A stretch of 63,352 bases of DNA, the filler included, from Dimargaris cristalligena (Eukaryota), in NCBI GenBank assembly GCA_003614675.1. It is 22 parts of 22 records of this genome, joined end to end, with 100 filler letters (N's around TTAATTAATTAA, not from the genome) between each part and the next. Parts side by side here need not be neighbours in the genome. Positions count along the whole stretch, not along the records: positions 2,934 to 5,762 come from ML004106.1; positions 5,863 to 8,682 come from ML004107.1; 20 more parts are not named here. The stretch is one strand, 5' to 3'. Made by a program: the position numbers and the translations under genes. Within the stretch, counting starts at the first letter, position 1, and each line of letters begins with the position of its first letter. Below the pieces are notes generated by a model that saw only the letters and a program-made list of their open reading frames with translations, made no database searches and was not told the origin of the DNA. Positions 1-52,475 of this stretch are shown piece after piece.

Positions 1-2
1 CC

Positions 3-1838
3 GCCCTGGGCTCCACGTCGGTCAACGGTACCCATACCCCATTGGCCCAACGCGTCATGGCCCGGTCCCAGCCCACTTCTCCGTCCCTAACTCACCTTAT
101 ATTGCCCAACTTGGGAATGCCCAAGCCCTATTGCCTCACTGCACCACTCCGTTCGGGCAGTTCCCTGCTCCCCCTTCAGAGCGGTTCCACCGGGCTATCA
201 GCTCTTCCCATGACACCCGCTCCCACTACCGCATCATCTTCCCCTGTTTTATCTGTGCAGCGTCGCAGCCCTCCCCTCGTAGCAGCCCCCTCCGGAATTG
301 CGGGCGGCCACGCTTCCACGAGTGCCCTGAAACCTATACGGCCGAATGTGCCCACGCCCCCCACCCCCACCGCCCCTACTGCTACCAGATCCAGTTCCAC
401 TGGATCACCAACCCCTCCCGCCACCCTGCTTCCCCGACCTTCCCCTCCCACGCCACTTCCTCTTTCCAAGTCCTCCAGTCTACCGGCGGCCCCAACCCCA
501 CCGGTCTCTGGCCCCAAGCCTCAGCAACCCCTAAAGGTCCTACCCAACCCCAACCCCAACCCCAAGCCTAGTCCCGAGCCCCGGCCGGTAACGGTTGCTC
601 CAAAGAAAACCAGCGAAGTTTTGGGTAGGGCTAAACCCCGTCCGGCCACTCTACCCCCGAAGCTCTCCGCAGTGAAAGCAGTCACCCCGGCCGCTCGCCC
701 TCGCCTAGGTAGTTCCGCCTCCACCTCCTCTTCCGCATCCGCCAAGAAACCCCTGACCCTGCCGTCCAAAACAACGATCAAGGACGCCAAAATCTCCATT
801 GATTTTAAATCCAGTCTTGCCAATATCCTTTTGTCATCCAAAGGCCTGGAGGGAAAGATCGATAGTAATTTCCACCCGTCCAACTATGAAGAGTTTTTCA
901 AGTCTCGCCCATCAGTGTTGGACAGTATATCCCCGTTGCTTCAAAATTCAGCCCTATATAAGGGGATAGCATCATCACTGGCGTCAACCGCGCGGAGTAC
1001 GCTACTGGCGTCTTATGGTATCAAATCCGCCACCGCCTCCGCCTCCTCTTCCGTTAAAACCGCACCGCCCACCCCGGGGAACAGTGCCGACAAACTGAAA
1101 GTTCCCGTGCCCACTCAAGAATCCTCAACCAACACCAAGGCCATGCGAGTGACCCCTCCTACCCTGAAGCAGAAGCCCGCAGAGAATCCCCCCATCGCCA
1201 CCATTAAATCAGCAAATTCTGTGAAGCCTACTCCGAAAAAAGCCGCACCTACGCTCACGAAATCTAAACCGGCTCGAGCCCCGCCAACGAAGACTGCTCC
1301 CAAATCCGTCTCCCCGGTGCCTAGCAGCGACTCTTCCCCGCCCACCAAACCCGTTGCAACTCGCAAGCCCGTCAAGAAATCCGCACCCGCCGCCCTTTCA
1401 CCTGCACCTACTCCTCCCCCTGTCGTCTCCCCACCCTCTTGTACACCGGCTCCTCCCACTAGCGATACTGAAACTCGGCGCGTCCCCTCCCCGATTCCCC
1501 TTGCCCCAAAGGCAGTGAAGCCGCCGCCAGCTACAGTACTGCAGCCGCCCGTACCGATACCAACTCCCGTACCCGTGCCTGTTCGTTCGGCCACACCCGC
1601 CCCTATGGAGATTGATAACCTTCATGCGCCTGAAAGTTTGCCAGAGATCCCCGAAGGGGTATATTGCTGCCAAATCGAAGGCTGTTCTGCTCCGCAGTTT
1701 TCAACATTGATTGAGCTGGCCCAGCACCTGGAGTTGTCCCACCCCCTGCACTTGGTGATGGAGGCATCCCGAATTCAGAATGCCTTGCCCCCCTTCGTAG
1801 TCGGGGTTGTTAATTTTCCCTGGGCAAATGCTGGCTGA
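3..1838 (+). CDS. 5'-partial Pro/Ser/Thr/Lys-rich disordered protein with a C-terminal C2H2-type zinc finger
   Basis: The frame is open from the contig start (position 3) to TGA at 1838. The C-terminus has CQIEGC-x13-HLELSH and is followed by an AT-rich 3' region. Confidence 0.7.
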   Translation, partial: ALGSTSVNGTHTPLAQRVMARSQPTSPSLTHLILPNLGMPKPYCLTAPLRSGSSLLPLQSGSTGLSALPMTPAPTTASSSPVLSVQRRSPPLVAAPSGIAGGHASTSALKPIRPNVPTPPTPTAPTATRSSSTGSPTPPATLLPRPSPPTPLPLSKSSSLPAAPTPPVSGPKPQQPLKVLPNPNPNPKPSPEPRPVTVAPKKTSEVLGRAKPRPATLPPKLSAVKAVTPAARPRLGSSASTSSSASAKKPLTLPSKTTIKDAKISIDFKSSLANILLSSKGLEGKIDSNFHPSNYEEFFKSRPSVLDSISPLLQNSALYKGIASSLASTARSTLLASYGIKSATASASSSVKTAPPTPGNSADKLKVPVPTQESSTNTKAMRVTPPTLKQKPAENPPIATIKSANSVKPTPKKAAPTLTKSKPARAPPTKTAPKSVSPVPSSDSSPPTKPVATRKPVKKSAPAALSPAPTPPPVVSPPSCTPAPPTSDTETRRVPSPIPLAPKAVKPPPATVLQPPVPIPTPVPVPVRSATPAPMEIDNLHAPESLPEIPEGVYCCQIEGCSAPQFSTLIELAQHLELSHPLHLVMEASRIQNALPPFVVGVVNFPWANAG

Positions 1839-2833
1839 TTTTGCCTGCAGAGAGCGGACCCACTCTCACTATGCCGCCGAGAAAGAAGCGGCCAACTCGG
1901 CCCCTTTCCCCCTGGCGGTCGCCCATGTCACTGCATTTTCACCCTATGTATATCAAGCTGATTTTGGCATTTTATTATTTCTATTAGCATAATATAGAAA
2001 ATTCCTAATTCAATAAACTTACTATTTCATTATTAGACGTCAACGGATTGTGTGCTTGTTGGGACGCTCGAATACTCAGTTGTTTAGAGTTAACCTTAGG
2101 CCTTAACTCGCTGAAAAAATATACAGGATCACAACGATGCACTCGTTTTATAGAACAGTAAATGTTAGCTGGGGGCCTCGGAATAAGGGAGTAGATGTGG
2201 ATGACATTCCGCCCAGCTAAGAATAGTAGAATCTATTTACTGATTAGGAGTTTTTCCAATGAAAAATAGATGGTCCGCTAACATAATCAGTGTAATATAT
2301 TACCCAGATTTTGGTCTAATTGGGCCAAGGTAACCCTGAATATTCTTGTTAATCAATTGGTTTTCTCGGGAGTAATGTTAGCATACTAGATAGGGTTGGC
2401 ATTAACAATCCATGGCGGTGATATATAATACGGAAATACGTATAGTGGTTACTGGTATTGGTGGCTAACGGAAGGCACAATAGGGTTGCCTGATAGTCAA
2501 ATTTAAGTATAGGGCCAATTAGAACCATATGGGGATGGGCTTCATCAGGATGTAAATCGAGAAATCTGATTCATGAGGAGATGTCACTTGTAAAAGCAAT
2601 ACCTCATCATTTTAACCGTACGCGTGCCGCTTCAAACAGCATGTAATTATGTTGAATTTCGCCTGTACAGCAATAGTTTTAGAAATATACCATGGTAGCG
2701 GCGTAAAATAATGCACTTCCAGATTAAACGTCAATCGAGCCATTCTGGGAGTTTAGATCGAATGCTTACATTATAGACGTAGGAACTTTTTCAGCATTCA
2801 CTCCTTCATCTTTAAAATCGCCCTATTATCCAG

Positions 2834-2933
2834 NNNNNNNNNNNNNNNNNNNNNNNNNNNNNNNNNNNNNNNNNNNNTTAATTAATTAANNNNNNNNNNN
2901 NNNNNNNNNNNNNNNNNNNNNNNNNNNNNNNNN
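2834..2933. other. Artificial contig linker N44-TTAATTAATTAA-N44 (first of 21)
   Basis: An identical 100-nt spacer with stops in all six frames starts at 2834, 5763, 8683, 11597, 14509, 17418, 20325, 23120, 26016, 28910, 31804, 34697, 37586, 40471, 43351, 46230, 49106, 51980, 54791, 57652 and 60504. Genes are cut at these points. Confidence 0.99.
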
Positions 2934-3601
2934 AATTCAAATATTACCATGGATGTAGTAAATGCGAATCCCGACAAACCATGGGACTGGGATGTGTTGA
3001 GTTTGAATCCAAACATCACCAGGGATGTTGTAAAAAAGAATCCAGACAAACCATGTCCTTGATAAGTTGGAATCAAAACATTACCATGGACATGGTCAGT
3101 GAGAATCCAGACAAACGATGGAATGATACCATGTTGAGTTGGAATCCAAACATTACCATGGATATGGTTAGTACCAATTTACAGAAGCCGTGGAATTATG
3201 GAAAGCTCAGTTCCAATACAAACATCAACATGGATATAGTGAATGCAAATCCAGAAAAGCCGTGGAATTGGCAAAGCTTGAGTAAGAATAGTAATATTAC
3301 TATGGAAATGGTGAATGGGAATCCAAATGCGCCATGGGATTATTTTGGTATGAGCAGGAATCCGAATCTCACAGTACAAATGTTCAAGGCGAATCCAGAC
3401 AAGCAATGGGATAATGACTATCTTTCTAATAATGACTTTAACTATGAGAAAAAACGATTACCGTTAGTATCTAAACAACATCGCAAGCTATTGGGCAAAC
3501 TACATAATGTCTTTGATATGCCACCGAGTTGCGACTCTCGTGCGATTTTCAAAAAAGGCGGAAAGGATTTCATGAAAGCATGGATGCATTTATGTCGGTA
3601 A
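2934..3601 (+). pseudogene. 5'-partial 24-aa tandem-repeat protein (NPDKPWxWxxLSxNPNITMDxVxx), giant-virus-like, frameshifted near 3055
   Basis: The frame from 2934 reads NSNITMDVVNA-NPDKPWDWDVLSLNPNITRDVVKK-NPDKP then stops at 3060-3062. The repeats resume in another frame at 3056 (SLISWNQNITMDMVSE-NPDKRWND...). About 7 units in total; the register implies a 7-nt deletion in unit 3. Confidence 0.75.
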
Positions 3602-3637
3602 AAGGATGAGGTTTCGCCTAGCTTCTTCATGGCTAAA

Positions 3638-4405
3638 TTATTGAATGTCAGCGCATATTTCCATTTTAATGCAAGAGCAGTAATGAAAGTTTTTTTGAAA
3701 GTTTTTTCCATTGAGTGTGTTCTTCGATTCAGAATCAGCGTTGTTTGGAGTCGACTTGAGGCCATTTTCGTTAAACCGAGTTTCCAAAGGTTTTGATTTG
3801 TCGGTTAGAAAGTTATTGAGAGTATCCGGGTTATAAGAACATTTCAGCACGATTTTTTTATCCGATTCAAAAAGATTTACCAAGGAGTCATCCTCTGTTG
3901 TGATCTTTACTGTGAAATGTTGAAAGTTTGCATTTAAATACGATAAATACGTTTGTGAACAATTGGATAAAATGTTCACATACTTGATTTTGTCAGTATG
4001 TGGGCATTTCTTTCTAACACATTGTTTTCAGATTTTATTTATCGATGAAAATATTTCTGAAAACGCGTGGAATATTTTTTCACTCTTCATTTCCTGCTTT
4101 TCGATATGTTTTTTTTTTGCGACGATTTACTGGATAACTTTTTCTTTCTGAGGCTTGATCTACGTGATCGACGCTTCATCAACGTCCTCCCGCCAACAGT
4201 TGAATTTCTAGGACTGTTGTGAAAAAAGAGTCGGACAGAAATGATTTTCGTCTAAACTGCTCGATATCAAAATTTGTCTACTGGACGAAGGCGAATAGGG
4301 AACTTCTTGATTGACCATGTACTGTTTTCTTTCTGCCGGTGTCATGAACATCAGATGATATTCTTTCCATATTTCTTCTCTTGTCATACGTTCTTGACCA
4401 GGCAT
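3638..4405 (-). pseudogene. Possible decayed Lys/Glu-rich ORF (ORFs 4208-4405 and 3638-3979 are in the same frame)
   Basis: Reading through gives protein-like KFNCWREDVDEASIT*IKPQKEKVIQ*IVAKKKHIEKQEMKSEKIFHAFSEIFSSINKI*KQCVRKK. Stops are at 4208 (TAG), 4160 (TAG), 4127 (TAA) and 4028 (TGA), each one C-to-T from Gln/Arg. This stop density is not clearly below random. Confidence 0.4.
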
Positions 4406-4610
4406 TTTTTAGCTGCCTAATACACTTTCTCAAACTTTTCACGTTTTGCATCAGTTTTCAATTTTTTATAATGGTATAAGTGTTCTGCGTCCCATTTTTC
4501 CTCGTCAGTGTTGATTCCCCATCTTTGTAAAACTCATCTCGTTTTTCTAACTCATCCAACATGACAGAAAGTTTTCTTTTAACTGTACCTTGTCTTTTTA
4601 TTGTTTCGGA

Positions 4611-5708
4611 ACTTTTTTTAAACATTTCAAGTATCTAATAATTGTCCACAAATTAATAATCGTTATCAATAGAAACACTTTTTCGATCGCCTCAAATTAT
4701 TAATAATTGTTATCAATAGAAATTGTTACTGATTGTTACAGTTACTGATTGATGTAAACGTCCCCTCTGCCAAAAATTGCGCATTGATAAGGAAGTCCTG
4801 TTATATTTATTTGCAACAAACCTTGAGAATTCTCGGAGCGCATGTCACGCAACTGGATGAAAAAAATCCCGAAACATTTCAAGGATTTTAGACTCTATCC
4901 GTGAAAATACCCAATCGATTGATGAACAGAAGGATCAGTTCAATACGGTGAAAAGAGATATTGCTTTACTCAAAAAGCAGTGCCTCATTGTGATTTATGA
5001 CGAAATGTCCGCCGATCAGTCATCTTAATTCAAGAGTTTCGAGTAAGAAACTATACTGCGCAAATGATTCAAAAACATTGTGAAAACTGTTGTGTAAGAC
5101 GATTTGCAAATAAGTTGTTGTAAGAAACGTACATTTCTGAAAAATTATAGGTGACGCCCTGGCATTGCTTTACAAAACAATCCCTCAAACTGGGTTGGTA
5201 TTCTAGTCGAATGATGTGAATTCGGGAACACCAGACGATCAAACAATAAAATCTTTTGTAGCAAAAGGCAATTCTTTTGGTTTCATCTTGTCAAAAGCTC
5301 AGACAACGGACAACCTTTTGGGGTCTTTAACAATATCAGTGATCAACTCTGATTGGATAACATCTACAGATCATAACTCGATCTTGACAACGACTCTGGA
5401 ATGGTTTCCCGCGTACATATCGCTAACCGGAGTCACAAGTTCCATAACTCTTTCTTCTCAAGGTTTGTTGCAAATAAATATAACAGGACTTGCTTATCAA
5501 TGTGCAATTTTTGGCAGAGGGGATGTTTACATTAATCAATAACTGGAAAAATTACATGCTTTCTGTGCTACCAATGCGGTTTTTGATGAACAATTTCTTT
5601 TGATAACAATAATTAATAATTTGAGGTGATCGATTAAAATTGTTTCTATTGATAACAATGATTGATTTGTTGACAATTTTTAGATACTTGAAATGTCTAA
5701 AAAAAATT
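4611..5708. repeat. ~120-bp inverted repeat pair (4611-4727 and 5589-5708), each ending in GATACTTGAA-ATG pointing outward
   Basis: The reverse complement of 5589-5708 aligns to 4611-4727 with about a dozen differences. Each copy contains a duplicated GTTATCAATAGAAA-like motif. The ATGs are at 4625 (-) and 5693 (+). Confidence 0.85.
5216..5542 (+). CDS. Hypothetical Ser/Thr/Ile-rich protein fragment on the virus-like contig
   Basis: 108-codon open frame with no ATG start. The frame extends upstream past an in-frame TAG at 5204-5206, so it may be a pseudogene. Confidence 0.4.
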   Translation: MNSGTPDDQTIKSFVAKGNSFGFILSKAQTTDNLLGSLTISVINSDWITSTDHNSILTTTLEWFPAYISLTGVTSSITLSSQGLLQINITGLAYQCAIFGRGDVYINQ

Positions 5709-6703
5709 CGATCACTGCTCGCGGCACAAAATGTCCGGTCCTTTGGGCTGACCAAGGGGGTGNNNNNNNNNNNNNNNNNNNNNNNNNNNNNNNNNNNNNN
5801 NNNNNNTTAATTAATTAANNNNNNNNNNNNNNNNNNNNNNNNNNNNNNNNNNNNNNNNNNNNACTCTTCGCCACTCTCACCCGCCTAATATCACTTCCGC
5901 GGTAGCATGGGTCGGTGTTTCATACAACGGGGATGGAAAATATATAGTCCCAGCCATGGGTGAGCAGCGGGGGACAAAGGTGTGTGTGTGAACCTGAGAA
6001 AATAAATGAGGATATACCAAGCCAAATAGATAAGGAATGGCGTAGATAGGTAGGCCGGTAGGTGGTATTTTTCTCGCAAGTGTCAGAGTGGCCGGCTCGT
6101 CTAATTATTCCGGACCCTGCCGAGCACATGCCTCCAGCTCCATTAGGCCTAATCGAGATGGAACACATACACTGTCACCACTATTGTCGCTAAACTTGTC
6201 CTTTCTATTGGCCCTTTCAGCGGATGCCGTCGTTGCTATACCACCGAGTAGTTGACCCTTCTTGGTCTTGTTGCTACAACTCCTTTTTTATGCTCTCCTT
6301 TTGCTATATTATTCTCGCCTGAGTCCTCTCTCCTCCACTTCCTTTCCCCTATATCATTCTCTGCTTCTCCATTTCCCCCACCAGTCCTGCCGAATCGCTC
6401 ATATCGGTTTACCCTATTGCCCCCTCATCTGTTTCACCCCCTCTCCTTCTGTCCGTGACTTGTAAGTAAAAATCTTGGATGTGCCTTTCCCCTATTTGCG
6501 AACCCTTCCGCCCTCATATCGGCTACACAGTAGGCCCTCTGATGAGATTGAGAAGGGCAATGCTCGGAACCCACCACCGGGACGGTCTCCCTCTATTCCT
6601 TACTAATGCATTCACCTATGCTATGGCACATTACCAATACCTCCGCTCCCGCTACAGTCTGATCGGTCCCCTTGGCTTCCCTTGAATTGGCCGTCTTTCC
6701 GCG

Positions 6704-8682
6704 ATGCCGTTCGTCATGAACCATAATAATCGGGTAGCTTGTGTGGTAAGTAGCGATTAATTATTAGGCTTTATTTATCGACGTAATTTCCGGACATATT
6801 GCCCACTATTGAGTCACCGACAGTCCACTATGGCCTGTAGTGACTGCCATGCCATGCTATACTATACTAAATTTTCCTTGCAACTCCCCACCAACACTCC
6901 ACTCATTTGTATATATCCATTTTTACCACCTCTGTGTGTATGCTCTCACGTGGCTTGTAACCACCCCCCCCCCTCCCCTCCTTATTCACTGCCGGCTATG
7001 ATGTCCAAATAGATGGTTGGACTACCAGCACGGGGCAAGACCTACATCGCCCAAAAAGGTGAGTTCCACAGCCGGTCTCTGGCCATTGGTGATTTTCCCT
7101 AGTAGCTGGGGTGATAAATAACATCGTCTGTAGCGTACTATTTCCCTACTACCAACCCTCCCATGACATAATTCCCTCAACTATATACTCACGCTCACTT
7201 ACACCAATCTGACCATAATCGAATATTGCCCTCCTTTTCCTCATCTCATAGTGTGTCGGTACCTCCAATGGGTGGGTATCCAAACCAAAGTGTTCAACGT
7301 GGGAAACTACCGGCGCCAACTAACCGGTGCCCAAACCGACCATTCCTTCTTTGATCCCCACAATGAGGAGGCCTCCCAACTCCGCCTCCAGTGTGCCATT
7401 GAGGCCCTAAATGATATGCTGCGCTGGTTCAAAAAGGATCACGGCGTAGTCGGGATTTACGACGCCACTAATTCCACCGCCAGCCGCCGGCGTCTCCTCC
7501 GCGAGCGACTGGAAGCCGCTGACATCCAGGTCATGTTTATTGAGTCCGTGTGCGATGCCGAGGACATTGTCCTGCGTAACATTATGCAAGTCAAGCTCAA
7601 CTCACCCGACTACGCCGACGGAGTCGAATCGGAAACTATCGTCAATGACTTCCGCGCCCGCATCGAGCACTACGAGGGGGTCTACGAACCCGTTACCGAG
7701 GATGAGTCCACCTTCGTCAAAATGGTCAATGTGGGTAGTAAGGTCATCATCAACCGCATCTGCGGCTATCTCCAAAGTCGGGTGGTGTACTATTTGATGA
7801 ACCTCCACATTGTGCCCCGAGCCATTTTCTTTAGCCGGCACGGCGAGAGTATGTACAACGTACTGGGCAAGCTGGGGGGCGACTCCGACCTTAGCCCCCG
7901 GGGTCGCAAGTACTCCGAAGCCCTTCCAGGCTTAATTTCCAAGCACCTGGATGGCCAAAACTTGACTGTCTGGACATCCACCATGCGCCGCACCATCCAA
8001 ACCGGCCAACACTTACCTTACCCTAAACTACAATGGAAAGCTCTAGACGAACTAGACGCGGGCGTATGCGACGGCCTTACCTACGAAGATGTCGAGCAAC
8101 AGTACCCCGAGGATTTCGCCCTCCGGGATGATGACAAATTCAACTACCGGTACCGCGGCGGTGAATCCTACCGGGACGTGGTGCTCCGTTTAGAGCCGGT
8201 CATCATGGAACTCGAGCGTCAGCACAACATTCTCATTGTCGGTCACCAGGCCATTCTGCGCTGCATCTACGCGTACTACCTCAATTACTCACACGAAGAA
8301 TTGCCGTATATTAAAATTCCGCTACATACCGTGCTGAAGCTGACCCCGCGCGCCTATGGATGTGATGTAGAGCAATACAAATTTGACATCGAGGCCGTCG
8401 ATACTTACCGTGCGAATCCTAAACGTCCGTCGTCGCTTAAGCGAGTGGGTGCCCATACCCCCACTACGTCGTCAGTGGGAGGCAGTGCGCCTTACAAACG
8501 CCCCCCAACGATGTCCGCGTCATCATCGGTCACTTCCGGCGGTGGCAGCGTGAGTAACATCCTAGGCGGGGGTGTTACGGGTGCATTTCAAGTGCCGACC
8601 TCCGTGCGTAATAACAACCTCCCACCCCATGCCAATACTCTGATTGGGGTATCCCCACCCGTCAGTGACCTCCCCCGGGTGG
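6704..8682 (+). CDS. 6-phosphofructo-2-kinase/fructose-2,6-bisphosphatase, 3'-partial; exons 6704-6745, 7013-7058, 7252-8682
   Basis: Introns GTAAGT...TAG (6746-7012) and GTGAGT...TAG (7059-7251) join in frame to give MVGLPARGKTYIAQKVCRYLQW (P-loop). Also present are FNVGNYRR, YDATNST, the phosphatase RHGES motif and YRYRGGESY. Confidence 0.95.
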
Positions 8683-11600
8683 NNNNNNNNNNNNNNNNNN
8701 NNNNNNNNNNNNNNNNNNNNNNNNNNTTAATTAATTAANNNNNNNNNNNNNNNNNNNNNNNNNNNNNNNNNNNNNNNNNNNNCAAGATGAGCAGCAATTA
8801 TTGGGAAACAGTGGTTTACTTGGGTGATCCTTGGGGTAATAAGTTCAAGGTGAGTTGCGAAGACTGGGAAAGTGGCTCAATAAAGAGCTTGGCTTTATTA
8901 CCGTTGATTATATGGCTATGGGGCTTTGTTTCTTCCAGAAAGTCAGGGCCCAGGTGAAAATTCGTAGAACGTCTGAGGTCCAAATTTTCGGGGGTTTTTT
9001 TGGAGGGAGACGATGTGGACTTTGATAGCGTGTGAATCTTTACTATTTCAGAAATGAATAGGCTGATGGTCTAGAGACTCGGCTGTTTCTCCCGTTTCCC
9101 AACCGGTGATTCAAAAACCAATAGACCCAATTGTGGAGGGATGCGCGATTTCGGATGTTTCCAAATTTATAGAGCACCGGTGTGTTTGGTCACGCGCAGT
9201 GTTCTGGTCTTGAGGGGGGGGGGGATGTCGGCAAACGTAGCGGGGTCTGTAGATTTTCTTGCAAAATATTAGTCGGAAGTCGCTAGTTGATGCGGGACAG
9301 GGGGGTGAAGGTTGGTAGTAAAATTCAAAATGATGAGGGGGCTGGTACCTATCGTGACCTTATGACCAATGCACTATAGTAGCTAATGTCCGTGTTTTTC
9401 TAGTAGTAATTAAAAACGGTTAGTGTCGATTGCAGAACTTGATGAGTACCTCTGGATAAGGGTATGGTCACTATAAGGGAAGATCAAATCAACTGAACAA
9501 TAAAAACCCCGCTTGCTGAGTTGAGGTTAGCTGGCTACAGGTAAACATCCTACACATTTTACCATATCCATGTCATCCGAAACTATAAATAGTTATGGAG
9601 AACTTCACTCTCACCCTTGGGCCTATCAATCCAATTGAGAATTTTGGAAATAAGCAACGATCCTTCTAGCCAATATCGGCAATTCACTGTGGGAAAACTT
9701 AATTCTTTTGGGGTCGGGGTAAGTGGGTTAGGATACGACTATGAACAACCGTGGGTGACGGTGGTATATCTTTAAAGATGAATAGCCAGAGATCGTATAA
9801 GCGTTAACCAGGCCTATACCGTTTATAACACATGATGGTGCAGGTTTCGAGAAATATTAGTAGCGTAGTCAGGTGACACTTGAAAGTTAAGGCAGCTGAT
9901 AGGGGCTCCGAATTTCCCCCCGCAGCCTAAAAGACTACGGTAAAGGGTCGATGCTAACTCACTGGCGCACCAACTCCTTCAAGTGCTGTAGTACCTGCTT
10001 TCTAGCTTTTCGTATAGCCCACCGCATTTTATGTCTGCTTTAATCCAACTGTATGTCCCGAGAGGTGTAATTCCAGAACCTCTATTAGTAAGAATGTGGT
10101 ATTGCTCTGCTGATGGAACGATAACCTGAGTATGAATGGGCTATTTGAAAGGCTAAGCCATATAGTTGGTCTGTGGTGGAGGGCCGGGACATATCGATGT
10201 GTCATAAAGCAGAACAAAAGGCCTTAATGAGTAAGATATGGAGGACATGCTAGCGTCCAGTCTTTTCACCACCCATTTCCCCAATACTATGTACTTTTTG
10301 ACCATTCTTTAATGTTTCAGATACTATGCGCGCGAGAAAAAAAAACTAAAGAAAGTATGAAAGATTTAAACTGATCCATAACTGGGGCATTAAGTGTTGT
10401 ACAGTGGCTTCAAGAATACTCCACTAGTTACCCAAAGGAGGCGTATACTCACTAACCCGCGCCCTCTTCGTCGTTTTATTAAGACGAAGGCGCCATCGCT
10501 AAGGGCTGGTACCCCCTCTGCTCCCGACTAGATGATTTTGGTTATAAGTCCGCTGGTCGTAAGATGTTAGGTTTACAACTTTAATTGGGATTCCTGTCCA
10601 ATCTTTAATTTCAACCAATTCAGTGTTCGAGTGCCTCTCCGCGTATTCGCTCCCAGTTGCTGCTTTGGTACCACTATAGTCTCACTCGGTCTGATTTTCT
10701 CAATTAGTATTGACCCTCCGATGAATAAAAATCTAAAACGCAGCGTCCTATTTGCCACAAGCTCCACGTCAGAGCCTTTTTTTCTATTATTTTGAACAGT
10801 TACCAGCTCAAGCCCCATCTGCTTCATTTGGGTGTACCAAGTATGGCGGTGCGAAATTGTGGCTTTGACAGCCCGTCGAGGTCGTACCTGGGATAAAAAT
10901 AGCTGTACAGGGTCGTCTCGCCTGACTACTGGTGTGACCACCGTTGTTCTACTTCTGCCTATCAAGCCATATCAGTGTGGAGCTAAAGTATGGCTGTTTA
11001 CTTTTATTCGCCGATACCCGCCTTTCTTTACTTCAACTTTGCCATCCCCTCCATCGCACTCAAAAGCATGGTGCCATCTCCTTACGCTTGTGGTACTAAT
11101 TAACCCAAATATACTCAGGAGTCTTTCGGACATAGTTGTCGCCATTATTAAAAGCGCCGTTTCTTGCTTCCCTCTCCCTCCACACGCCTGATAAAGTTTC
11201 CTCCGCATCATTGTCAAGTGATCCATGTGCTCCGAAATTCCCCCTTTGGGTTAAGCTGATGGAAGCGATAAACCGCCGCATACGCCCAAAAGTCCGATTT
11301 TGCCTATCAGCTATTTTTACTTGACGCTATCGTAGGAGTGGGACAAAGAATCAGAAAATAATAATAACCGGGCTCGTAATTGGGCACCAATAGACTAAAG
11401 GAGTTTCCTGAATGAGAGCGGTCTGGTTCGGTAGTATTAGCCCATTGCCCTCTTTGGTTGCAATTCCAAAGGAATCCCGCCTGACCTCAGAAGTTAGGAG
11501 GCGATTTTCTTAAAGTGATTCACCGTGAGCCACAGCAACCCATTTTCTGTGGCACCAAGGCGTATTGTAAATAATGGTCATGCTACCAGTCTTGGGNNNN

Positions 11601-11927
11601 NNNNNNNNNNNNNNNNNNNNNNNNNNNNNNNNNNNNNNNNTTAATTAATTAANNNNNNNNNNNNNNNNNNNNNNNNNNNNNNNNNNNNNNNNNNNNAAAG
11701 TAAAGATTCTTTTCTCCACATGTAATCTGTGCAAAATGAACTAAGAAGTATTGGTAATGTCATCTATTCGTGTTTGCTAACTATTACTATTACAATTGTA
11801 TATAGGCATCATTATTGTGGACGGTCGCAGTGTTGGTGTCAGAAGTCGTGAAAGTCAGAGCAATACAAGTCTGGAATTCCAGGTGTTCTGTGAAAATGCC
11901 ATTAATGGATATTGAATGTGATTGTAT

Positions 11928-12312
11928 AATGTTGAAAGAATTTGCAATGGGATTGTGATTCTAAAATGTTGAAAGAATTCGCAATGGGATTGTGAATGTA
12001 TATGATTGATTGTATAATGTTGAAAGAATTTGCAACGGGATTGTGAATGTATGTGATTGTAAAATGTTGAAAGAATTTGCAACGGGATTGTGAATGTGAT
12101 TGTGATTGTGATTGATTGTTTAATGTTGAAAGAATTTGCAACGGGATCGTGAATGTGATTGTGATTGAGATTGAGATAATGTTGAAAGAATTTGCAATGG
12201 GATTATGATTGTAGAATGTTGAAAGAATTGTGATTTCGATTGAGATTGTTATTGCAAAATGTTGAAATAATGTGCAATGAGATTGTGATTGTAGAAAGTT
12301 GAAATGATTTCG
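11928..12312. repeat. Array of a 31-bp core AATGTTGAAAGAATTTGCAAYGGGATTGTGA with variable low-complexity spacers
   Basis: Near-perfect cores start at 11928, 11965, 12016, 12063, 12122 and 12178; degenerate ones at 12215, 12258 and 12295. Spacers are 6-28 nt, built from GATTGT/GAATGT-like hexamers. Confidence 0.92.
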
Positions 12313-12322
12313 TTGGATGTAA

Positions 12323-12478
12323 GTTTTATCGATAAATATTTGTTTTCCCATGCAATACGGAAACTGACAATCGCACCGAGAAAGTATGCTGGTTAGTATG
12401 TTGGCATTTGCAAAAATGTTTTATCGATAAAATATTTGTTTCCCTATGCAATACGGAAAGGCCGAGAAAGTATACTGC
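12323..12478. repeat. Two ~60-70 bp direct repeats, each opening with palindrome TTTATCGATAAA
   Basis: GTTTTATCGATAAA(A)TATTTGTTT...ATGCAATACGGAAA...CCGAGAAAGTAT occurs at 12323 and 12418. Confidence 0.85.
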
Positions 12479-12662
12479 TTAAATGTTTTTTGTGATAAAA
12501 CGCGTTTGTAAAATAATATCCACAGCTAGCACCTTGAAAAATGTTTATCGTTAGATATCTTTGGTGGAATCGTTCTTAAAAGACAGTCTCATCAAGCGAC
12601 CCCACCATATTTATTCATAACTTCCAAAATCATTCAACGAAAGCTTAAAGATACTTTTCACG

Positions 12663-13157
12663 ATGAATACTGCGCGTACCATTTTCAACAAGATTTGGAA
12701 CAAGACTTTTGGCAAGATGTGGCCGATTAATTTCGGTTCAGGAAAAGAAGATATCGAAAGTCAACTCACTGGATCTAAAGTTACTTTTCAAGACGAAACT
12801 ACTGTGATAAGTTCTCTTTATGACAACGCAAGTGAAGAGCACCTCTATGTTCCTGACACGATCAATTTCGAAAAGCACCTCAAAAAGCCAGTCAAAATTC
12901 AAGAACGCATTATCTGTCAATCCCCAGAAACGTATAACGATGAATCATTGAAAGCGACCGTTGATAAAGTTTTGGACGATCCCCCAAACTTTTCACTCTC
13001 TCCGCCTGCTTTGCCTATTTCTAGTTACATTCCCGAAAACAACTCTGTCAAAAGGACACGTGGTACATCCATGATCGGCATTCCACAGGATGAAAAGATA
13101 TCCCACGCGAGCTCGACCGATTTTATGTCTCATTTTGTAGATTTAGTTAGCAAATAA
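12663..13157 (+). CDS. Hypothetical protein, 164 aa, on the virus-like contig
   Basis: Intact intronless ATG-TAA ORF, co-oriented with its neighbours and followed by a T-rich tract. Confidence 0.7.
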   Translation: MNTARTIFNKIWNKTFGKMWPINFGSGKEDIESQLTGSKVTFQDETTVISSLYDNASEEHLYVPDTINFEKHLKKPVKIQERIICQSPETYNDESLKATVDKVLDDPPNFSLSPPALPISSYIPENNSVKRTRGTSMIGIPQDEKISHASSTDFMSHFVDLVSK

Positions 13158-13289
13158 CGAAGTCTGCATTATGTTTTTTACTTTTTGTATTTTTTGAAAA
13201 AAGTCGAATAAAACACATCCGCGCTTATTGGGAAACATGCACAAAAAAAATGTAGTACAAAGATCATAGAGAAATACAAACACTGTTCA

Positions 13290-13763
13290 ATGCAAAACAT
13301 GTCAAGTAATCAATCAAATTATTCGCGTTCAATGAAACGCCAACCTTTGTTAGCTACGACTTATCTTCCCGAAAGAGCGATCCCGGTTCACAATAACTTC
13401 ACTAGCGATGAGTTTGGCTCTCCGCAAATCGCCGACTATGGGAAACGTAATTTTGACACCGAACAAGCTTTCCGAGATACTGCACCTTCATCACAATCAG
13501 GAGTGAGACAATTTTCCGGTCAACTTCCCTATGCGACCACACCTAGATCTTTTGAGAATCCAATGACAAAAATTATTCCTCAGCCGACAAAAATGGGAAA
13601 GGTTTGCTTTAACGATGCGTTGGACAAAGCTGGTCCATTCTATCTCAGGCAATGGCAAATTTGGGAGAATGCACCGTTTATTCCATCTCTTGGAGATGTC
13701 ACAAAAGACCCACGCTATGCTATTCAAACGAAAGGATTCACAACCGAATATACTAGAATCTGA
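13290..13763 (+). CDS. Hypothetical protein, 157 aa, on the virus-like contig
   Basis: Intact intronless ORF preceded by an A-rich leader and followed by a T-tract. No recognised domain. Confidence 0.7.
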   Translation: MQNMSSNQSNYSRSMKRQPLLATTYLPERAIPVHNNFTSDEFGSPQIADYGKRNFDTEQAFRDTAPSSQSGVRQFSGQLPYATTPRSFENPMTKIIPQPTKMGKVCFNDALDKAGPFYLRQWQIWENAPFIPSLGDVTKDPRYAIQTKGFTTEYTRI

Positions 13764-13801
13764 TTTGTTTTTTTAATTTCCTATAATCGGACGATGTTTT
13801 T

Positions 13802-13923
13802 GAGATTCTCGAACCGTTTATAGATAAAGTTTTTTTCAAATACATTCGAGATACACAGAGATTCTCAAAACCATTTATCGATAAAAAAAAATTTGAAATA
13901 CATTCGGGATTCACAGAGATTCT
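13802..13923. repeat. Tandem duplication of a ~57-bp intergenic unit
   Basis: GAGATTCTC..AACC.TTTAT..GATAAA.....AAATACATTCG.GAT.CACAGAGATTCT occurs twice. The second copy has TTTATCGATAAA at 13874. Confidence 0.75.
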
Positions 13924-14103
13924 GAAAAAAGACCGTTAAACACCCTCTTGTTCATCGGTTTTATCATGTGATTGTTCTAGGTTCTCTGGTTTCTTGGTTG
14001 CACCATATAATGATATTGAGAAAGGTTATCGATAAAACTTTTTATGGAATATAAAAATACATTGTTATTGGCTATGTTTCGCACAATCATTCAACCATTA
14101 CAT

Positions 14104-14508
14104 ATGTCACTGTATGTTCAGAAACTGAACGAGCGTGCGATTATTCCGACCAGACAGTCTGAAAACGCAGCGGGACTGGATCTTCATGCCTTTCTCGATG
14201 CTTCGTCGAAAACATTTGTTATACCACCCCATCATCGGCGTGTTATTCCAACAAAAATTGCAATCGAAATTGAGCCAGGTCATTATGGAAGGGTCGCGCC
14301 TAGAAGTGGATTGTCAATTAAAAATGGCATAGATGTCGCGGCAGGTGTTATCGATAGCGATTATCGTGGAGAAATTGGCATCGTTCTAGTCAACAATGGT
14401 GAAGAACCTTTCCATGTTGAGCACGGAATGCGAGTAGTACAACTGATAATCGAAAAAATTTCTATCCCGATTGTACGAGAAGTCAACAATTTGTCTGATA
14501 CTGTTCTA
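14104..14508 (+). CDS. dut: Trimeric dUTPase, eukaryote/virus type, 3'-truncated by the contig end
   Basis: Motifs AGLDL, GRVAPRSGLS, AGVIDSDYRGEIGIVLVN and GMRVVQLI. Motif V is missing at the contig end. The ATG at 14104 (MSLYVQKL) fits better than the one at 14044. Confidence 0.95.
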
Positions 14509-20425: not shown

Positions 20426-22624
20426 ATCAACTGGTACGGTCCTACCGAAGTGGCGTGTGGGTCCCATTGGACTAGACTCCAGACCAACAAGGTAATTATT
20501 CCCATTGGTACTCCGCTACCCAATGCCACTGGCATTATCCTCAATGCCCACCTCCACCCGGTTCCTGTTGGTGCCATAGGCCAGCTCTACCTAGGCGGCC
20601 GCGGCGTAGCCCGCGGTTATCTCAATCGCCCTGACCTTACGCAGGAAAAATTTATTTTGAGTCCGTTTACGGGGGAGCGCATCTACCAGTCGGGTGACCT
20701 GGCCCGCTGGCTACCCAACGGCCAAATCGAGTGCCTCGGCCGGATCGATAACCAGGTGAAGTTGCGGGGGTTCCGTATTGAACTAGGGGAAGTGGAAAGT
20801 GCCCTGGAACGTCACCCCGCCGTGGATCAAGCATGTGTTGTCCGGGATAAGGACCATTTGGTTGGCTACATTGTCCCCCCTTTTGGCCAGACAGCCACCA
20901 TTCTAGATTTTCTGCGTTCTCAGTTACCCCACTACATGATTCCCTCCGTTCTGGTGGAACTGGCCGAATTGCCACTGACCCGGGTGGGTAAGGTTGACCG
21001 CAAGGCCCTGCCTATGTTCGATTTGCCTGTTAATGACCATATCCCAGAAACTGTACAGGCCAGTCCGGTCGAATCCGGGCTTATTAGCCTTATAGCTGAA
21101 ACCCTTCAGATCAATCCAGGTTCTATTTCACCAACGGTCACTTTTTTCCAACTCGGTGGCAATTCCCTGTCGGCCATCCAATTAGTTACCCGCTGTCGTC
21201 GCCAGAACCTTCAGCTGGCCCTAGTGGATATCAACCGGTCCAACACGATTGCCTACCTTGCCAAACTAATTTCGATTGCATCCGATTCCGTCGAAGTGTT
21301 TTCGGGAGATACCCGTGGTACAGCAGACTCGGAGTCCCGAACTGCGCGGCTTACGCCACCTCAGCTGGAATTAATTGCCCTCCAGCTGGCCGACCCTCAC
21401 TTCTTCCCCTTACCCACCATGTATGAATCAAGCGTCCGGTTTACCGCCCATCAGTGGCAAGCCGCCTGGACCAAGGTGGTTCAGCACCACGACATGCTCC
21501 GGGCTCGCTTTCAACCCACAAATAATGGGGAATCGATGATTACATTTGCTGATTTAGATGACCCTTCGTCCACTTATTTTGAATACCACCAAGTGGCTGA
21601 TATCCGCGATGCGCTAGTCCAGCTCAACCACATTAACCACCTGATTAATTTCGAGACTGGGCCAATTTCCCAGGTTCGAGTATTCGATGCCAACGGCATT
21701 CAATACGTCTACATTTCCGTCCACCATATGGTCTTTGATTATATGTCAGTTCAGATTGTTCGAGAGGACCTTTCGGCCTACTTAACCGGGCGGGCTCTAG
21801 ACCCCAAAACCCATTCGCACACGGTGTGGGCTGACTACCTTTGGTCGCTGGCCCAATCCATTGATCCGTGTACTATCGAGTTACCCCCGCCTGCCATTCC
21901 CCTACCTTTAGAGATTGCTGCAAATGGCGCCCCAATTACCAACGAAACCCGGGAATGCGTGGCGAAACTCATCGATCAAAGTGCCGCGCATAACCTCGTG
22001 ACTACCGTGGCCACTAGGCTCAAAGCCACGCCCATCGAACTCATCTTGGCCGCCCTAGTATGCGCCTATGGCAGACAGTTTGGATTATCCCAGATGGACA
22101 TTGCATATCTAGGCCACGGTCGCAAGGATCCCTATGGCCAGTGCGATGTCTCACGAACAGTCGGCTTCTTCGCCAGTCAATTCCCATTGGTTTTCTGCAA
22201 TGCACCTAGTGGCGATTTGGTGGACACGTTATATCAAGTTCAAACAACTCTGAGTACGGGAATGGATAATGGCTTCCTGTATACTGTATTCAAGAATCTA
22301 CATTGCTCTGCCAACGATCAAATTGACCTAAAACAGCAGTTTGACGTGCAAACCCAGTTCGAGTTTACGTATTTAGACGATTTGTCTCTATGTGAGTCGC
22401 CCAACACCAATACACTCCTTGTTGAACGACCCGCAATGCTTAATGATCTACGGACCGCGAAGAGCCAAAACAAATACCCATATTTATTCGACTTCACAGC
22501 TTGGAACACCGCTGGTGGATTGGACATTATAACCAATTTCAATTCAAGGCAGTTTCGGGTGGAGACCATTGGCGGTCTGATGTCGCACTGGAAAAACTGT
22601 CTTCTTGAGTTGTCCCGCGTTTAA
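20426..22624 (+). CDS. NRPS final module, 5'-partial: A(C-term)-T-epimerization-like terminal domain
   Basis: A motifs NWYGPTE, GQLYLGGRGVARGYLNRPDLT, YQSGDL, GRIDNQVKLRGFRIELGEVE and GKVDRKALP. T domain FFQLGGNSL. Then HHMVFD, LGHGRKD and SRTVGFF (E-domain-like), ending at TAA. No introns. Confidence 0.95.
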   Translation: MNWYGPTEVACGSHWTRLQTNKVIIPIGTPLPNATGIILNAHLHPVPVGAIGQLYLGGRGVARGYLNRPDLTQEKFILSPFTGERIYQSGDLARWLPNGQIECLGRIDNQVKLRGFRIELGEVESALERHPAVDQACVVRDKDHLVGYIVPPFGQTATILDFLRSQLPHYMIPSVLVELAELPLTRVGKVDRKALPMFDLPVNDHIPETVQASPVESGLISLIAETLQINPGSISPTVTFFQLGGNSLSAIQLVTRCRRQNLQLALVDINRSNTIAYLAKLISIASDSVEVFSGDTRGTADSESRTARLTPPQLELIALQLADPHFFPLPTMYESSVRFTAHQWQAAWTKVVQHHDMLRARFQPTNNGESMITFADLDDPSSTYFEYHQVADIRDALVQLNHINHLINFETGPISQVRVFDANGIQYVYISVHHMVFDYMSVQIVREDLSAYLTGRALDPKTHSHTVWADYLWSLAQSIDPCTIELPPPAIPLPLEIAANGAPITNETRECVAKLIDQSAAHNLVTTVATRLKATPIELILAALVCAYGRQFGLSQMDIAYLGHGRKDPYGQCDVSRTVGFFASQFPLVFCNAPSGDLVDTLYQVQTTLSTGMDNGFLYTVFKNLHCSANDQIDLKQQFDVQTQFEFTYLDDLSLCESPNTNTLLVERPAMLNDLRTAKSQNKYPYLFDFTAWNTAGGLDIITNFNSRQFRVETIGGLMSHWKNCLLELSRV

Positions 22625-46329: not shown

Positions 46330-46432
46330 CTGCCACCTCTTGGAACAGCAAGTCTATCATCACCTTTCCCTTCTTATCATCTATTTTTTAAATAAAATTC
46401 AGTTTTCAAGGATTTGATTTCAGTTCTTTACA
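46330..46432 (-). mobile_element. LTR family B, partial copy (another partial copy at 60604-60678, minus strand)
   Basis: The reverse complement matches TGTAAAGAACTGAAATCAAATCCTTGAAAACTGAA... of 63004. Confidence 0.85.
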
Positions 46433-47379
46433 CTTCATCTCACCCTTAGTACTATTTATTGTATTAGGTATTTCCAGTGATCATATTAGTTGAAACTACA
46501 TTTAATAAATACTACTGTGATGAGCTTAATTCTCATCTTACAGTTCTTTCTATTTCATGTCTATTTTAAAATAAACTTTGCCTTTAATTAATCTTGGAAT
46601 ATCATTGAGAGAATCTGCAGTTATCCTAATAATAAGATCTCCTAATATGTCTTTATAGGAAGTAAAGTTAATTCTTACTCTTTTAGACTTAAGTAATATA
46701 AGTAATATAGGGCCAAATAGTGTAGTACTTAATAATTTAGTTACTAGCTATAAGGTTTTGTAGCCTAATTATAAAACTATTTTTAGTCAAATATCTGATA
46801 TCTGATTTATAACTCTCCTTTTCACCCTATTGACCCAACATAGTAATATAATTAAGGTAGAGGCTATAACTAATCATATAAAATAAGGTGGTTCCTATAT
46901 ATACAAGTACCTCTTTAGTTTCATTAGCCTTATAGTCCTTAAATTTGGGATTACCAGCTTGCATAATTAGTTATATAAAATACTGGAATAAACTATGGTA
47001 AATCTGTAACAATTTACTAAAATGCCCAGATATGCTAATGGTATAAATGAGATTAGCAATCAGAAAGGGGGCTATAATCTAAATAGTCATCCCACAAATA
47101 GGTGTTTTAAGAAAGAAAGGCTTATAGACTCCCTGACTATAAGTAAGCTCCAAGGTAGTGACCAGGTAGCAGTGGCTATTTGAGTATATAAGTCAGCCTT
47201 TCTGGACCTGGTTAAAGATATATAAAGAGCCATATTGCTAACTTAGGATAATAAGAAACTCTTAGTCTATTCAAATATAGAGAATGTCAATGAAAATATT
47301 AATTAACAATCTCAATTATTATTAATTAGTGTTGGACCATATAATACACCTTAATCCTCACATATTAGTATCTACCCTT

Positions 47380-47900
47380 ATTAGGCCTTATAGTGCCATA
47401 TCAACCCTCCCAAAGCCACCCCTGGTACTATGGGATCATCCTATATCATATAACCATTCCCCTTCTAGACTCCACCTCTTTGCACTAATTACTCAAGTGC
47501 TGATCTGATGACTCTTCTGGTTACCATCAGAGTCTTCCAGACCCTAATGACCATCTGATTGGCCTATATTACTATATTTTAGTCTTAGTAGTATTCTTCC
47601 CATGGGGCCTCCCTCTGGAGTTGCCCCCACATCTATATACTGGGCCCTATTGGGACCAGTTAGATTCCCCAGCTTATTCTTACTCCTTGTTTACCCTAAT
47701 AAACTCTATATATACTTATTCCCCCATATCTAATAGTAAGTGTGCCTACTACACATCCCTTGCATATCCCTACTACTTAGCCTTTATTAGTTAGTACTAT
47801 GTCCTGTACCTAATACTAGTAGCCTACTTAGCTGAGCCTAAGCCTCATCTACCATTAGAAGCCTATACTTGGGACTCTTAATGGACTAAGAGTAGTGAAC
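47380..47900 (+). mobile_element. Heavily decayed multi-copy retroelement 3' region (Gypsy integrase-like); related pieces near 34090-34520, 41760-41860, 62780-63003 and 31610-31712 (-)
   Basis: A shared block CACTAATTACTCAAG(T)RCTRATCT and its flanks occur in contigs 12, 17 and 22, with a residual YTGPY motif. The region is nearly free of CpG. Confidence 0.65.
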
Positions 47901-48546
47901 CTGGGTAATAATATGAGCTGTTGGGATTGATAATAATTGTTTTTTTCCTTATCTATTGATGACATTTTTTATAAAGTATTTGTGTGGGTGTTTGAACTAA
48001 AATGGCATTATAGAATGTTGTAGTAAAGCTAGGATGCCCCATAATAATGTAAGGTAGTAATGACTTGGACTGTTGAATAATGATAGAGGAGATGTAAATA
48101 GATATGTCAATAATTGATTACATGTTAGACATAACATAAAGTATCACAATTTTTTAGTACTGTGTCTTTGTACCTGGTGCTAGTAACTACATAACCAAAT
48201 CTAAGTTAGTCCTACCAGTGGATGCCTATCCCTGGGATCCTTAATGGACTAAGAGTGGTTAACTCATATGATAAGGACTAAATCAGGCATTTATTGAATT
48301 ATGTAGTTAAAATAAATTGTTTCATAAAGGAGAGGAAATAATTCAATGTCATCAAGATACAAGTATATAAAATCATAGATGTGGGGACCATTATTATCAT
48401 GTGTGTGTGTGTTTCCCTCTATCGTTTATGCTAGGGGCTTACATACAAATGTCAGCCATATTAATTCGAGTAGGCGGGATTTGGTACGGACCCACCTACC
48501 ATGGGGTGCTGTGGTGCGGCAGCCTAGAATGCGTATTTTTCCCCGC

Positions 48547-48876
48547 TCAAATAGTATTGTCAGCCTCGGTCAGTGGTACCGCATGGCCCGGTCTGTTCAC
48601 CGTAACTGGGTGCGCTGTATAGCACCCACTAGTTGAGCCCGTCCCACATACACTTCCACAGGACAGTCGACTAGTAGGGCTATACGTGGTGCATGGTTTA
48701 ACGCAATTGCCACTAGTTGGGCAGAGGAAGTAGGAGTTGTCAATGGTACGTCTCGATATATCCGATTCACTTTCTAACATTCTTGCGTAGCAGCACGAAT
48801 TCAAGACAATGGGGCTGGCGGAGGTGCCAACCAAGTAGGTGGCGGTAAGGAGGGCGAGGGTGGTGATGAAACGCAT
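48547..48876 (-). CDS. Small secreted cysteine-rich protein (109 aa, 8 Cys)
   Basis: Signal MRFITTLALLTATYLVGTSA. Intact ORF with normal CpG content next to CpG-free TE debris. Confidence 0.8.
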   Translation of the reverse strand: MRFITTLALLTATYLVGTSASPIVLNSCCYARMLESESDISRRTIDNSYFLCPTSGNCVKPCTTYSPTSRLSCGSVCGTGSTSGCYTAHPVTVNRPGHAVPLTEADNTI

Positions 48877-52079: not shown

Positions 52080-52475
52080 GTCGTTGATCAGCTTAATAGA
52101 AGAAGGAAAGGCCGCTGCTGGCCCCTTGGCGTCAGCCTTCTTTTCCAGCGAGCCGTCGTCGTTAATCACCGCGCCGTTAATAAACATCATACCTGCCTTC
52201 TCTTCAACGTTCATTTGTTTCAGCAGGTTATTGATCCGGGCTTCAATCGGCTGCGATTTATCCTCGTACACATCCAGTTTGCTGTTCTTGTTCAGGTCAC
52301 GAAAAGTGTTGCCATCAATGGTAATAAGCACCTGAGATTCGTTTGCCAGTATTGGGTTTATTACCTGTGTGCTATTTTTCCACGAGGTTATGCTGATGAT
52401 TACGATGGCAAGGGTTGCCAAAGTTGGCAGAAGAGGATTGAAAGGCAATTTCATATGAGCAATTTGTTTCATCAC
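52080..52475 (-). CDS. N-terminal fragment of a bacterial GH3 beta-glucosidase (signal peptide + start of the barrel)
   Basis: FRDLNKNSKLDVYEDKSQPIEARINNLLKQMNVEEKAGMMF is the typical GH3 N-terminus. Confidence 0.85.

Follow-up and report, generated by a model that had tools for sequence, protein, structure and literature searches.

A multi-copy segment with a giant-virus-type repeat gene, present as a reproducible, repeatedly broken copy in a Dimargaris cristalligena assembly

The stretch of DNA analysed here (the window, 63,352 nucleotides (nt)) comes from the Dimargaris cristalligena assembly GCA_003614675.1 and consists of about 22 contigs of 2.7–2.8 kb each, joined by N44-TTAATTAATTAA-N44 linkers; it represents several loci and not one. 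Positions 2934–5762, one entire contig of 2829 nt with a guanine-cytosine content (GC) of 0.361, hold one copy of a multi-copy segment. This copy is real and reproducible and has been disabled at several points, and one gene on the contig belongs to a family that is abundant in giant viruses. With a probability of about 0.5, what the contig carries is a dead copy of such a segment, derived from a Nucleocytoviricota-type virus and located in or alongside a chytrid-like fungus. The evidence comes from the contig itself, from its relatives in protein and viral collections and from sequencing runs. Sampled words of the contig were present in six runs from three studies under three organism labels, which may stand for one material, and one of the six may be the assembly's own source. 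Four of these runs (X1–X4) were aligned to the contig; no RNA run appeared among the listed holders of the words. The features that carry the finding are:

2934–3601, plus strand: pseudogene of a tryptophan-rich repeat of 24 amino acids (aa) (NPDKPWxW / LSxNPNIT), recognised from spacing, translations, homologues and a 21-sequence alignment.
3055–3056, plus strand: site of a 7-nt deletion where the frame is lost after repeat 2, recognised from a 65-nt spacing and from X4 versus X1 contigs.
3641–4625, minus strand: gene X, an orphan of about 328 codons, broken, recognised from open reading frame (ORF) pieces and from the indels of related copies.

The repeat gene, whose 5' end lies beyond the contig edge, contains seven copies of a 72-nt unit between positions 2934 and 3416, with start-to-start spacings of 72, 65, 72, 72, 72 and 72 nt. 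The single spacing of 65 nt therefore implies the loss of seven bases between copies 2 and 3. The frame that opens at 2934 reads through two clean repeats and ends as NSNITMDVVNANPDKPWDWDVLSLNPNITRDVVKKNPDKPCP at two consecutive stops, and the remaining five repeats are read in the frame of 2936, together with a 56-aa tail, up to the TAA at 3599–3601. The conserved tail occupies approximately positions 3431–3598, and its VFDMPP and KGG motifs are invariant in the 21-sequence alignment of the gene's relatives. A contig of run X4, from a copy about 93% alike, carries seven additional bases immediately after 3055, and these bring the repeat frame back to NPDKPWNYSLISWNQNIT. An X1 contig covers 3013–3616 with no gaps and thus shows that the deleted form is real DNA; the insert is likewise missing from the X3 contigs at 3055. 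The sequence-only reading of this stretch had described a 24-aa repeat gene broken by a deletion of about 7 nt and had proposed to look for the frameshift at 3055 in run data. The spacing and the seven extra X4 bases bear out the deletion, and the run data show both forms, the deleted one in X1 and the intact spacing in the X4 copy.

The damage to gene X is more extensive. Its coding sequence is scattered over seven minus-strand pieces in three frames (a, 4458–4634; b, 4417–4533; c', 4208–4408; e, 4087–4251; f, 4080–4175; g, 4028–4126; and h, 3638–4027), which lie head to tail with the frame changing along the series, as the earlier report of in-frame stops in the neighbouring genes had anticipated. 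Five 1-nt frameshifts (near 4523, 4404, 4222, 4178 and 4110) and two stops (TAG at 4417–4419 and TGA at 4028–4030) separate them. With respect to the contig, related copies in X3 and X4 have one nucleotide more at 4523 and 4404 and one less at 4222, 4178 and 4110; taken in order, these indels join pieces a-b-c'-e-f-g exactly into a run of about 198 open codons, which cannot be explained by chance in AT-rich DNA. A further change in a related copy, 4417 C>G, converts the TAG into TAC. Piece h lacks an ATG close to its start and continues the frame of g past the TGA; gene X is read as a gene of about 328 codons. An alternative genetic code behind the in-frame stops was considered and ruled out, since frameshifts account for five of the seven breaks in gene X.

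Contigs from X1 and X2, which belong to two other studies, show the broken copy in exactly the same form. They match the contig with no gaps over 3013–3616, 3698–4227, 4220–4829, 3633–4109 and 4110–4829, and the broken copy is therefore real DNA; X1 and X2 do not cover 5499–5762, and nothing is concluded from that. At the right end, an X3 contig matches 5462–5762 without differences, and one X3 contig extends 347 nt past the end of the contig. The frame breaks are thus seen against related copies and recur in independent data, as is expected of a pseudogene, and the decay proposed from the sequence (the 7-nt deletion, five frameshifts and two stops relative to related copies) is corroborated by its reproduction in two other studies. 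That this decay could be an artefact of assembly or amplification is extremely improbable. The depth of the X3 and X4 contigs, from 15 to 12,476, does suggest amplified DNA, and one junction of the contig (4829|4830, described below) lies within a palindrome, is not reproduced and may make an inverted repeat a chimera; against this, the deletion and all the frameshifts recur with identical bases in contigs from two other studies, and the doubt is confined to the inverted-repeat architecture and leaves the decay unaffected.

Runs X3 and X4 contain several diverged copies of the segment, with up to 5 contigs at one site. Among the 103 aligned contigs of X3, 38 are at least 99% alike, 25 lie at 95–99% and 40 at 90–95%. 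Among the 40 listed of 166 differences, the repeat gene has 14 (4 synonymous and 10 non-synonymous) and gene X has 13 (5 synonymous and 8 non-synonymous). The differences between copies are near-neutral, and the picture is that of a family whose copies decay independently of one another. The many disabling changes in a near-neutral pattern would place this copy outside any replicating virus, and because they accumulate in that way a viral fossil inserted in a cellular genome would be the more likely form of the element; the contig's own copy would then be without function. A different account, which we consider unlikely, is that of a replicating giant virus, free or episomal, whose host would be the fungus or a different eukaryote in a non-axenic sample, the copies being strains or paralogues among which some pseudogenes are tolerated. 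The repeat family and the composition described below would suit such a virus as well, the contig carries no host sequence, X3 has several variants per site with up to 5 contigs at one place, and the occurrence of near-identical sequence in three studies under three organism labels suits a virus or a co-travelling organism. With a deletion, five frameshifts and two stops crowded into 1.7 kb, however, the copy is heavily damaged for a replicating virus, the copy differences look near-neutral, and hallmark genes are lacking on the two window contigs that have the same compositional signature.

This signature sets the contig apart from most of the window. Apart from the repeat gene, the contig consists of short ORF pieces only, in every frame, and GC at third codon positions (GC3) is 0.33–0.44 in its ORFs versus 0.55–0.76 in five host-like ORFs of the window; together with the overall GC of the contig, these values agree with the initial description of AT-rich DNA with short ORFs and a GC3 unlike that of fungal genes. 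AT-richness alone is unremarkable, as about half of the window contigs have a GC of 0.37–0.42 and several of these are retrotransposons; the contig is distinctive because of its dinucleotides, with an observed/expected ratio (o/e) of 0.96 for CpG and 0.57 for TpA. The combination of GC 0.36–0.37, CpG o/e 0.96–1.16 and TpA o/e 0.57–0.59 is found in only two of the 23 window pieces, 2934–5762 and 11697–14508. The remaining AT-rich contigs show CpG o/e values of 0.05–0.54 with normal TpA, and several of them contain retrotransposon domains (rve, DUF4219). In tetranucleotide composition the contig is nearest to 11697–14508 and then to seven of eight GVMAG/UViG viral loci. Contig 11697–14508 probably comes from the same entity as 2934–5762, though the two have no sequence in common; blastn and tblastn comparisons of 2934–5762 with the other window contigs returned no common sequence either.

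The sister contig 11697–14508 (GC 0.37, CpG o/e 1.16, TpA o/e 0.59) encodes a dUTPase at 14080–14508 (E-value (E) 8.5e-32), the only Pfam family on it, which leaves the contig at its right end. It also contains two orphan ORFs that share a frame (178 and 183 codons) and degenerate tandem repeats of 37–47 nt at 11889–12330. The palindrome TTATCGATAA occurs there in four exact copies, one of them roughly 50 nt ahead of the dUTPase start. Allowing up to one mismatch, seven matches were counted versus 2.69 expected, a number reached in 2 of 100 shuffles; six lie in 11697–14508, one, with a mismatch, lies at 4039, and none was seen in 21 loci. The enrichment was too weak, and the palindrome was dropped as a link between the two contigs.

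The link to giant viruses comes from the repeat gene. There is no Pfam model for it, and its best relative is P0001, a hypothetical protein of the chytrid Blyttiomyces helicus (E 3.8e-57, 44% identity, 96% coverage). The 27 homologues found include two named ones, both from B. helicus (P0001 and P0002), which carry the non-repeat tail of the contig gene; a third B. helicus member falls in the same 90% cluster. The contigs on which family members lie include one of 20,146 nt (RKO94172.1, B. helicus), one of 2,851 nt (RKO84622.1) and two metagenome contigs of 37,306 and 53,089 nt (P0153 and P0158). In IMG/VR, eight of 16 matches to the repeat pattern were confirmed at 39–51% identity (tblastn), five of them on GVMAG-labelled contigs. 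In one of these loci, L008, a Capsid_NCLDV gene (E 1.8e-58) is separated by 2.4 kb from a tandem pair of repeat genes. An ORF of another locus, L001, looked capsid-like by eye; Pfam gave no confirmation and it was set aside.

Structure prediction from the 21-sequence alignment gave a mean predicted local distance difference test (pLDDT) score of 77.6 and a predicted template modelling score of 0.63, with pLDDT values of 81–94 in the repeats and 51–59 in the tail. According to this model, intact relatives are predicted to form an alpha-solenoid with two short helices per repeat, followed by the conserved tail. A fold search of BFVD returned 15 matches at E<=0.001, and all 15 are Nucleocytoviricota proteins (21–40% identity), from Marseillevirus LCMAC101, Megaviridae environmental samples, Pithovirus LCPAC304, Mimivirus AB-566-O17, Solumvirus, Orpheovirus and ChoanoV1; BFVD covers viral proteins only, and the family may have cellular members as well. 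Solved structures gave no Foldseek match at E<=0.001 (best PDB E 2.9), and the best VIA Z of 4.2, to PPR, alphaRep and ankyrin designs, indicates a generic alpha-solenoid only. The assertion that this repeat type is common in giant viruses is thus upheld by the eight IMG/VR loci, the capsid gene near the L008 pair and the 15 of 15 BFVD folds, and the same three observations place the repeat gene in an accessory giant-virus gene family. The broader description of the contig as giant-virus-like stands in part: repeat family and composition speak for it, a hallmark gene is absent and the other ORFs have no relatives. The giant-virus reading, drawn from one gene family and from composition, is accordingly partly supported.

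The tail narrows the family further. Its pattern, L..EL..VFDMPP......F.KGG.GF, has ten invariant positions in 20 sequences, and the VFDMPP...KGG form was found only in B. helicus proteins and in unnamed metagenome contigs. Of 309 candidates in a scan of metagenomes, 13 were confirmed, and a single metagenome contributed nine of these. The 13 contigs have a GC of 0.35–0.42, TpA o/e of 0.46–0.76 and CpG o/e of 0.66–1.07. Genes are densely packed on them, long ORFs run without interruption on either strand, and repeat genes form tandem arrays; L013 is about 80% coding. Such packing looks like the giant-virus style, without proving a virus. On L015, positions 1–4584 hold four tandem tail-bearing paralogues with their own short upstream regions, followed by a convergent PP1-type phosphatase gene, an example of local family expansion. 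Six of ten neighbours of tail-bearing genes have Pfam families (Metallophos, PIF1, DUF3182, Macro, EXS and Vint). A search of longer proteins with the tail profile, over at most 8000 candidates, gave at least 10 matches, none of them named, a weak census that missed the known member P0001. Tentatively, the VFDMPP...KGG branch may mark an undescribed giant-virus-like lineage, with several independently decaying insertions in a chytrid genome; intact members, whose tandem arrays adjoin genes for PP1-type phosphatase, PIF1 helicase, Macro, EXS and Vint proteins, would then occur in soil and freshwater metagenomes, still unrecognised as viral. The intact repeat proteins might act as binding scaffolds with an adaptor tail, expanded in virus-host arms races.

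Several results weigh against a viral origin or weaken the reconstruction of the decay. A Pfam scan of eight ORFs of the contig gave sub-threshold noise only. The test for hallmark genes covered the two window contigs that share the signature, and no capsid, PolB, A32, VLTF3 or RNAP gene of Nucleocytoviricota was found on 2934–5762 or on its compositional twin 11697–14508; the ten scanned neighbours on tail-bearing metagenome contigs include no viral hallmark either. A scan of IMG/VR with the tail alignment confirmed none of 62 pattern matches, and a profile comparison between the tail and WHP-type viral tails gave a probability of 0.4%. For the dUTPase of the sister contig, with best relatives 50–58% identical, the named sources among the 120 matches listed are ciliates and bacteria only, none viral or fungal, and none of its 25 pattern matches in IMG/VR was confirmed. 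No host-like sequence or host-virus junction is present on 2934–5762. Genes X and Y (ORF Y is described below) have no relatives, which leaves two thirds of the contig uninformative on origin. The very uneven depth of runs X3 and X4 makes copy number unreadable. No intact copy was shown among the related copies of the runs, and in one of them 4202 G>C creates a TGA in the chained frame of gene X.

Some of these points would suit a cellular, non-viral multi-copy region of a chytrid or of another AT-rich eukaryote, with a gene family common to viruses through transfer in either direction, an explanation that we regard as improbable. The best and only named matches of the repeat gene are annotated as fungal (B. 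helicus, 44% over 96%) and have the tail in common with it, the tail subfamily was not found in IMG/VR, the tail-bearing metagenome contigs have eukaryote-like neighbours (PP1-type phosphatase, PIF1, EXS), and the nearest named proteins to the sister-contig dUTPase, among the matches listed, are from ciliates. The dinucleotide signature and GC3 are nevertheless unlike those of the host-like genes and of the host-like retrotransposons of the window; the long uninterrupted ORFs and roughly 80% coding density of L013 are unlike typical fungal nuclear DNA, and all 15 significant folds are giant-viral, a count to be read with the viral-only library in mind. The dead viral copy is the preferred reading.

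The right-hand half of the contig contains the following additional features:

4609–4829, no strand assigned: left arm of an inverted repeat, in blocks I1 (98 nt, 93%), I3 (45 nt, 93%) and I2 (74 nt, 89%).
4830–5454, plus strand: middle segment between the arms, defined from the sequence and from run contigs.
5207–5542, plus strand: ORF Y, an orphan of 111 codons from stop to stop (108 from GTG), from the ORF call.
5455–5709, no strand assigned: right arm of the inverted repeat, from arm complementarity.
5693–5762, plus strand: gene Z, 5' end only, which leaves the contig; ILEMSKKNSITARG... compared with ILEMFKKSSETIKRQG... of gene X.

The arms are about 220 nt long and complementary at 89–93% in three blocks. 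Three elements form each arm: about 88 nt from the 3' end of ORF Y, intergenic DNA that contains two 24-nt direct repeats, and 17 nt from the start of a gene, which is X on the left and Z on the right; the ORF Y copy in the left arm is inverted, and the 3' end of ORF Y itself lies inside the right arm. Genes X and Z have a common upstream region and common first codons. The left inner junction, 4829|4830, falls inside the palindrome GAGAA|TTCTC (GAGAATTCTC). A 12-nt inverted microhomology, AAACCTTGAGAA, is located at 4818–4834 and 5450–5466, on either side of the middle segment. In X1 and X2 a single contig runs along 4818–5454 and then into the reverse complement of 4829–4220, that is, in the plain order Y, X, and X1, X2 and X4 have a different sequence upstream of 4818. 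None of the listed contigs of X1, X2 and X4 reproduces the window junction 4829|4830, and the inverted repeat is judged doubtful for this reason. It probably arose by chimeric joining of two paralogous copies and is otherwise, at most, an infrequent rearrangement; microhomology, palindrome and uneven depth are together what an inverted chimera formed in amplified DNA would be expected to show. In contigs from amplified data of the single-cell type, such junctions need verification.

The inverted arms, with 89–93% identity over about 220 nt, and the existence of multiple diverged copies would also be features of a transposon or foldback element, with the arms as termini and genes X and Y as the cargo. 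We find this very unlikely: the arms consist of the 3' end of one gene, an intergenic region and 17 nt of another gene and are not element termini, none of X1, X2 and X4 reproduces the left inner junction, and in X1 and X2 the middle segment continues into left-arm sequence with the genes in direct order. Pfam detected neither a transposase nor an integrase domain in the eight ORFs of the contig, which therefore does not show the terminal inverted repeats with a transposase that define such an element.

Searches with the orphan genes gave little. The 129-aa C-terminal piece of gene X has no true relative among 1.84 billion representatives in an exhaustive search; the two matches returned, proteins of 4853 and 1830 aa aligned in 38 and 6 stretches respectively, were taken as low-complexity, given the many short stretches in long proteins, and discarded. 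None of nine pattern matches of this piece in IMG/VR was confirmed. For ORF Y there was no Pfam family, and the IMG/VR scan gave 25 pattern matches with none confirmed. ESM Atlas placed the gene X piece nearest to clusters of viral hypothetical proteins (recognition 1492) and ORF Y nearest to clusters of bacterial galactose-binding-like domains (recognition 2236, 148 common features); both results lie below the trust level of the tool and were kept as leads only. Searches of the contig for tRNA genes, Rfam families and phage sequences (BLAST) returned no match, and an exact look-up of five of its ORFs found them absent from the protein collection.

Other contigs of the window differ in character. 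Three of them, 60604–63352, 57752–60503 and 46330–49105, are AT-rich with CpG o/e values of 0.05, 0.29 and 0.32, respectively; the first encodes a copia-type gag domain (DUF4219) and the second gave a weak match to a tyrosine-recombinase domain, which suggests host transposons under heavy methylation-driven mutation or mutation resembling repeat-induced point mutation. Contig 52080–54790, with an internal gap of 8 N and a GpC o/e of 1.34–1.44, unlike all other pieces, has a single long ORF (52595–54007) that looks bacterial by eye, and may be a bacterial contaminant of the assembly. The host-like contigs 20426–22621 and 54892–57651 (GC 0.49–0.51) are each filled by one long ORF; these look, by eye and from their motifs, like modules of non-ribosomal peptide synthetases.

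If the contig is viral, it would be one further trace of giant-virus traffic in zoosporic fungi. The tail motif, combined with normal CpG and depleted TpA, would then serve as a marker for retrieving the rest of the element from the assembly and from metagenomes, and the set of copies, each broken in its own way, could be used to date the insertion event or events. Taken alone, a fragment of 2.8 kb that lacks a core gene adds nothing beyond the work on Mycodnaviridae, under which name giant viruses and viral fossils of zoosporic fungi have already been described (Myers et al., PLoS Biol 2026, PMC13533422). The preprint version of that work reports a capsid gene in 17 of 141 fungal genomes and contigs of up to 350 kb (PMC12247965). 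The genus Blyttiomyces is absent from the main texts of these two sources (PMC13533422, PMC12247965), and a later preprint gives it among the host genera of fungus-infecting giant viruses (10.64898/2026.09.08.750034). No literature on the repeat-plus-tail subfamily was found in searches by organism and family name only.

The contig probably fits the giant-virus remnants of zoosporic fungi already published. As in the Mycodnaviridae fossils (PMC13533422), genes of giant-virus type are found in a chytrid-like assembly, composition and gene density are unlike those of the host, and states range from intact to fossil. The published cases differ in being contigs that reach 350 kb and carry a capsid gene together with several core genes (PMC13533422, PMC12247965), whereas here a 2.8-kb fragment carries one accessory repeat gene and no core gene. 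The 'tryptophan repeat gene family' of entomopoxviruses (MSV027, MSV029, MSV205) likewise comprises multi-copy, tryptophan-rich helical repeats; the fold matches to it are weak (E 0.012–0.15, 11–15% identity) and do not establish kinship. Poxvirus ankyrin-repeat proteins end in a C-terminal PRANC/F-box-like adaptor. By analogy, a repeat scaffold with a short conserved C-terminal module and tandem expansion are seen in both, although neither sequence nor fold matches ankyrin beyond a generic alpha-solenoid and the tail of the contig family is modelled with low confidence (pLDDT 51–59). The uncharacterised repeat proteins of LCMAC101, the Megaviridae samples, LCPAC304, Orpheovirus and loci L001–L008 have the same unit, LSxNPNITxExVxxNPDKPWxW, and the same predicted solenoid, at 39–51% identity by tblastn and 21–40% in fold alignments. 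These viral proteins end in a WHPK-type or other tail, whereas the subfamily of the contig ends in VFDMPP...KGG.

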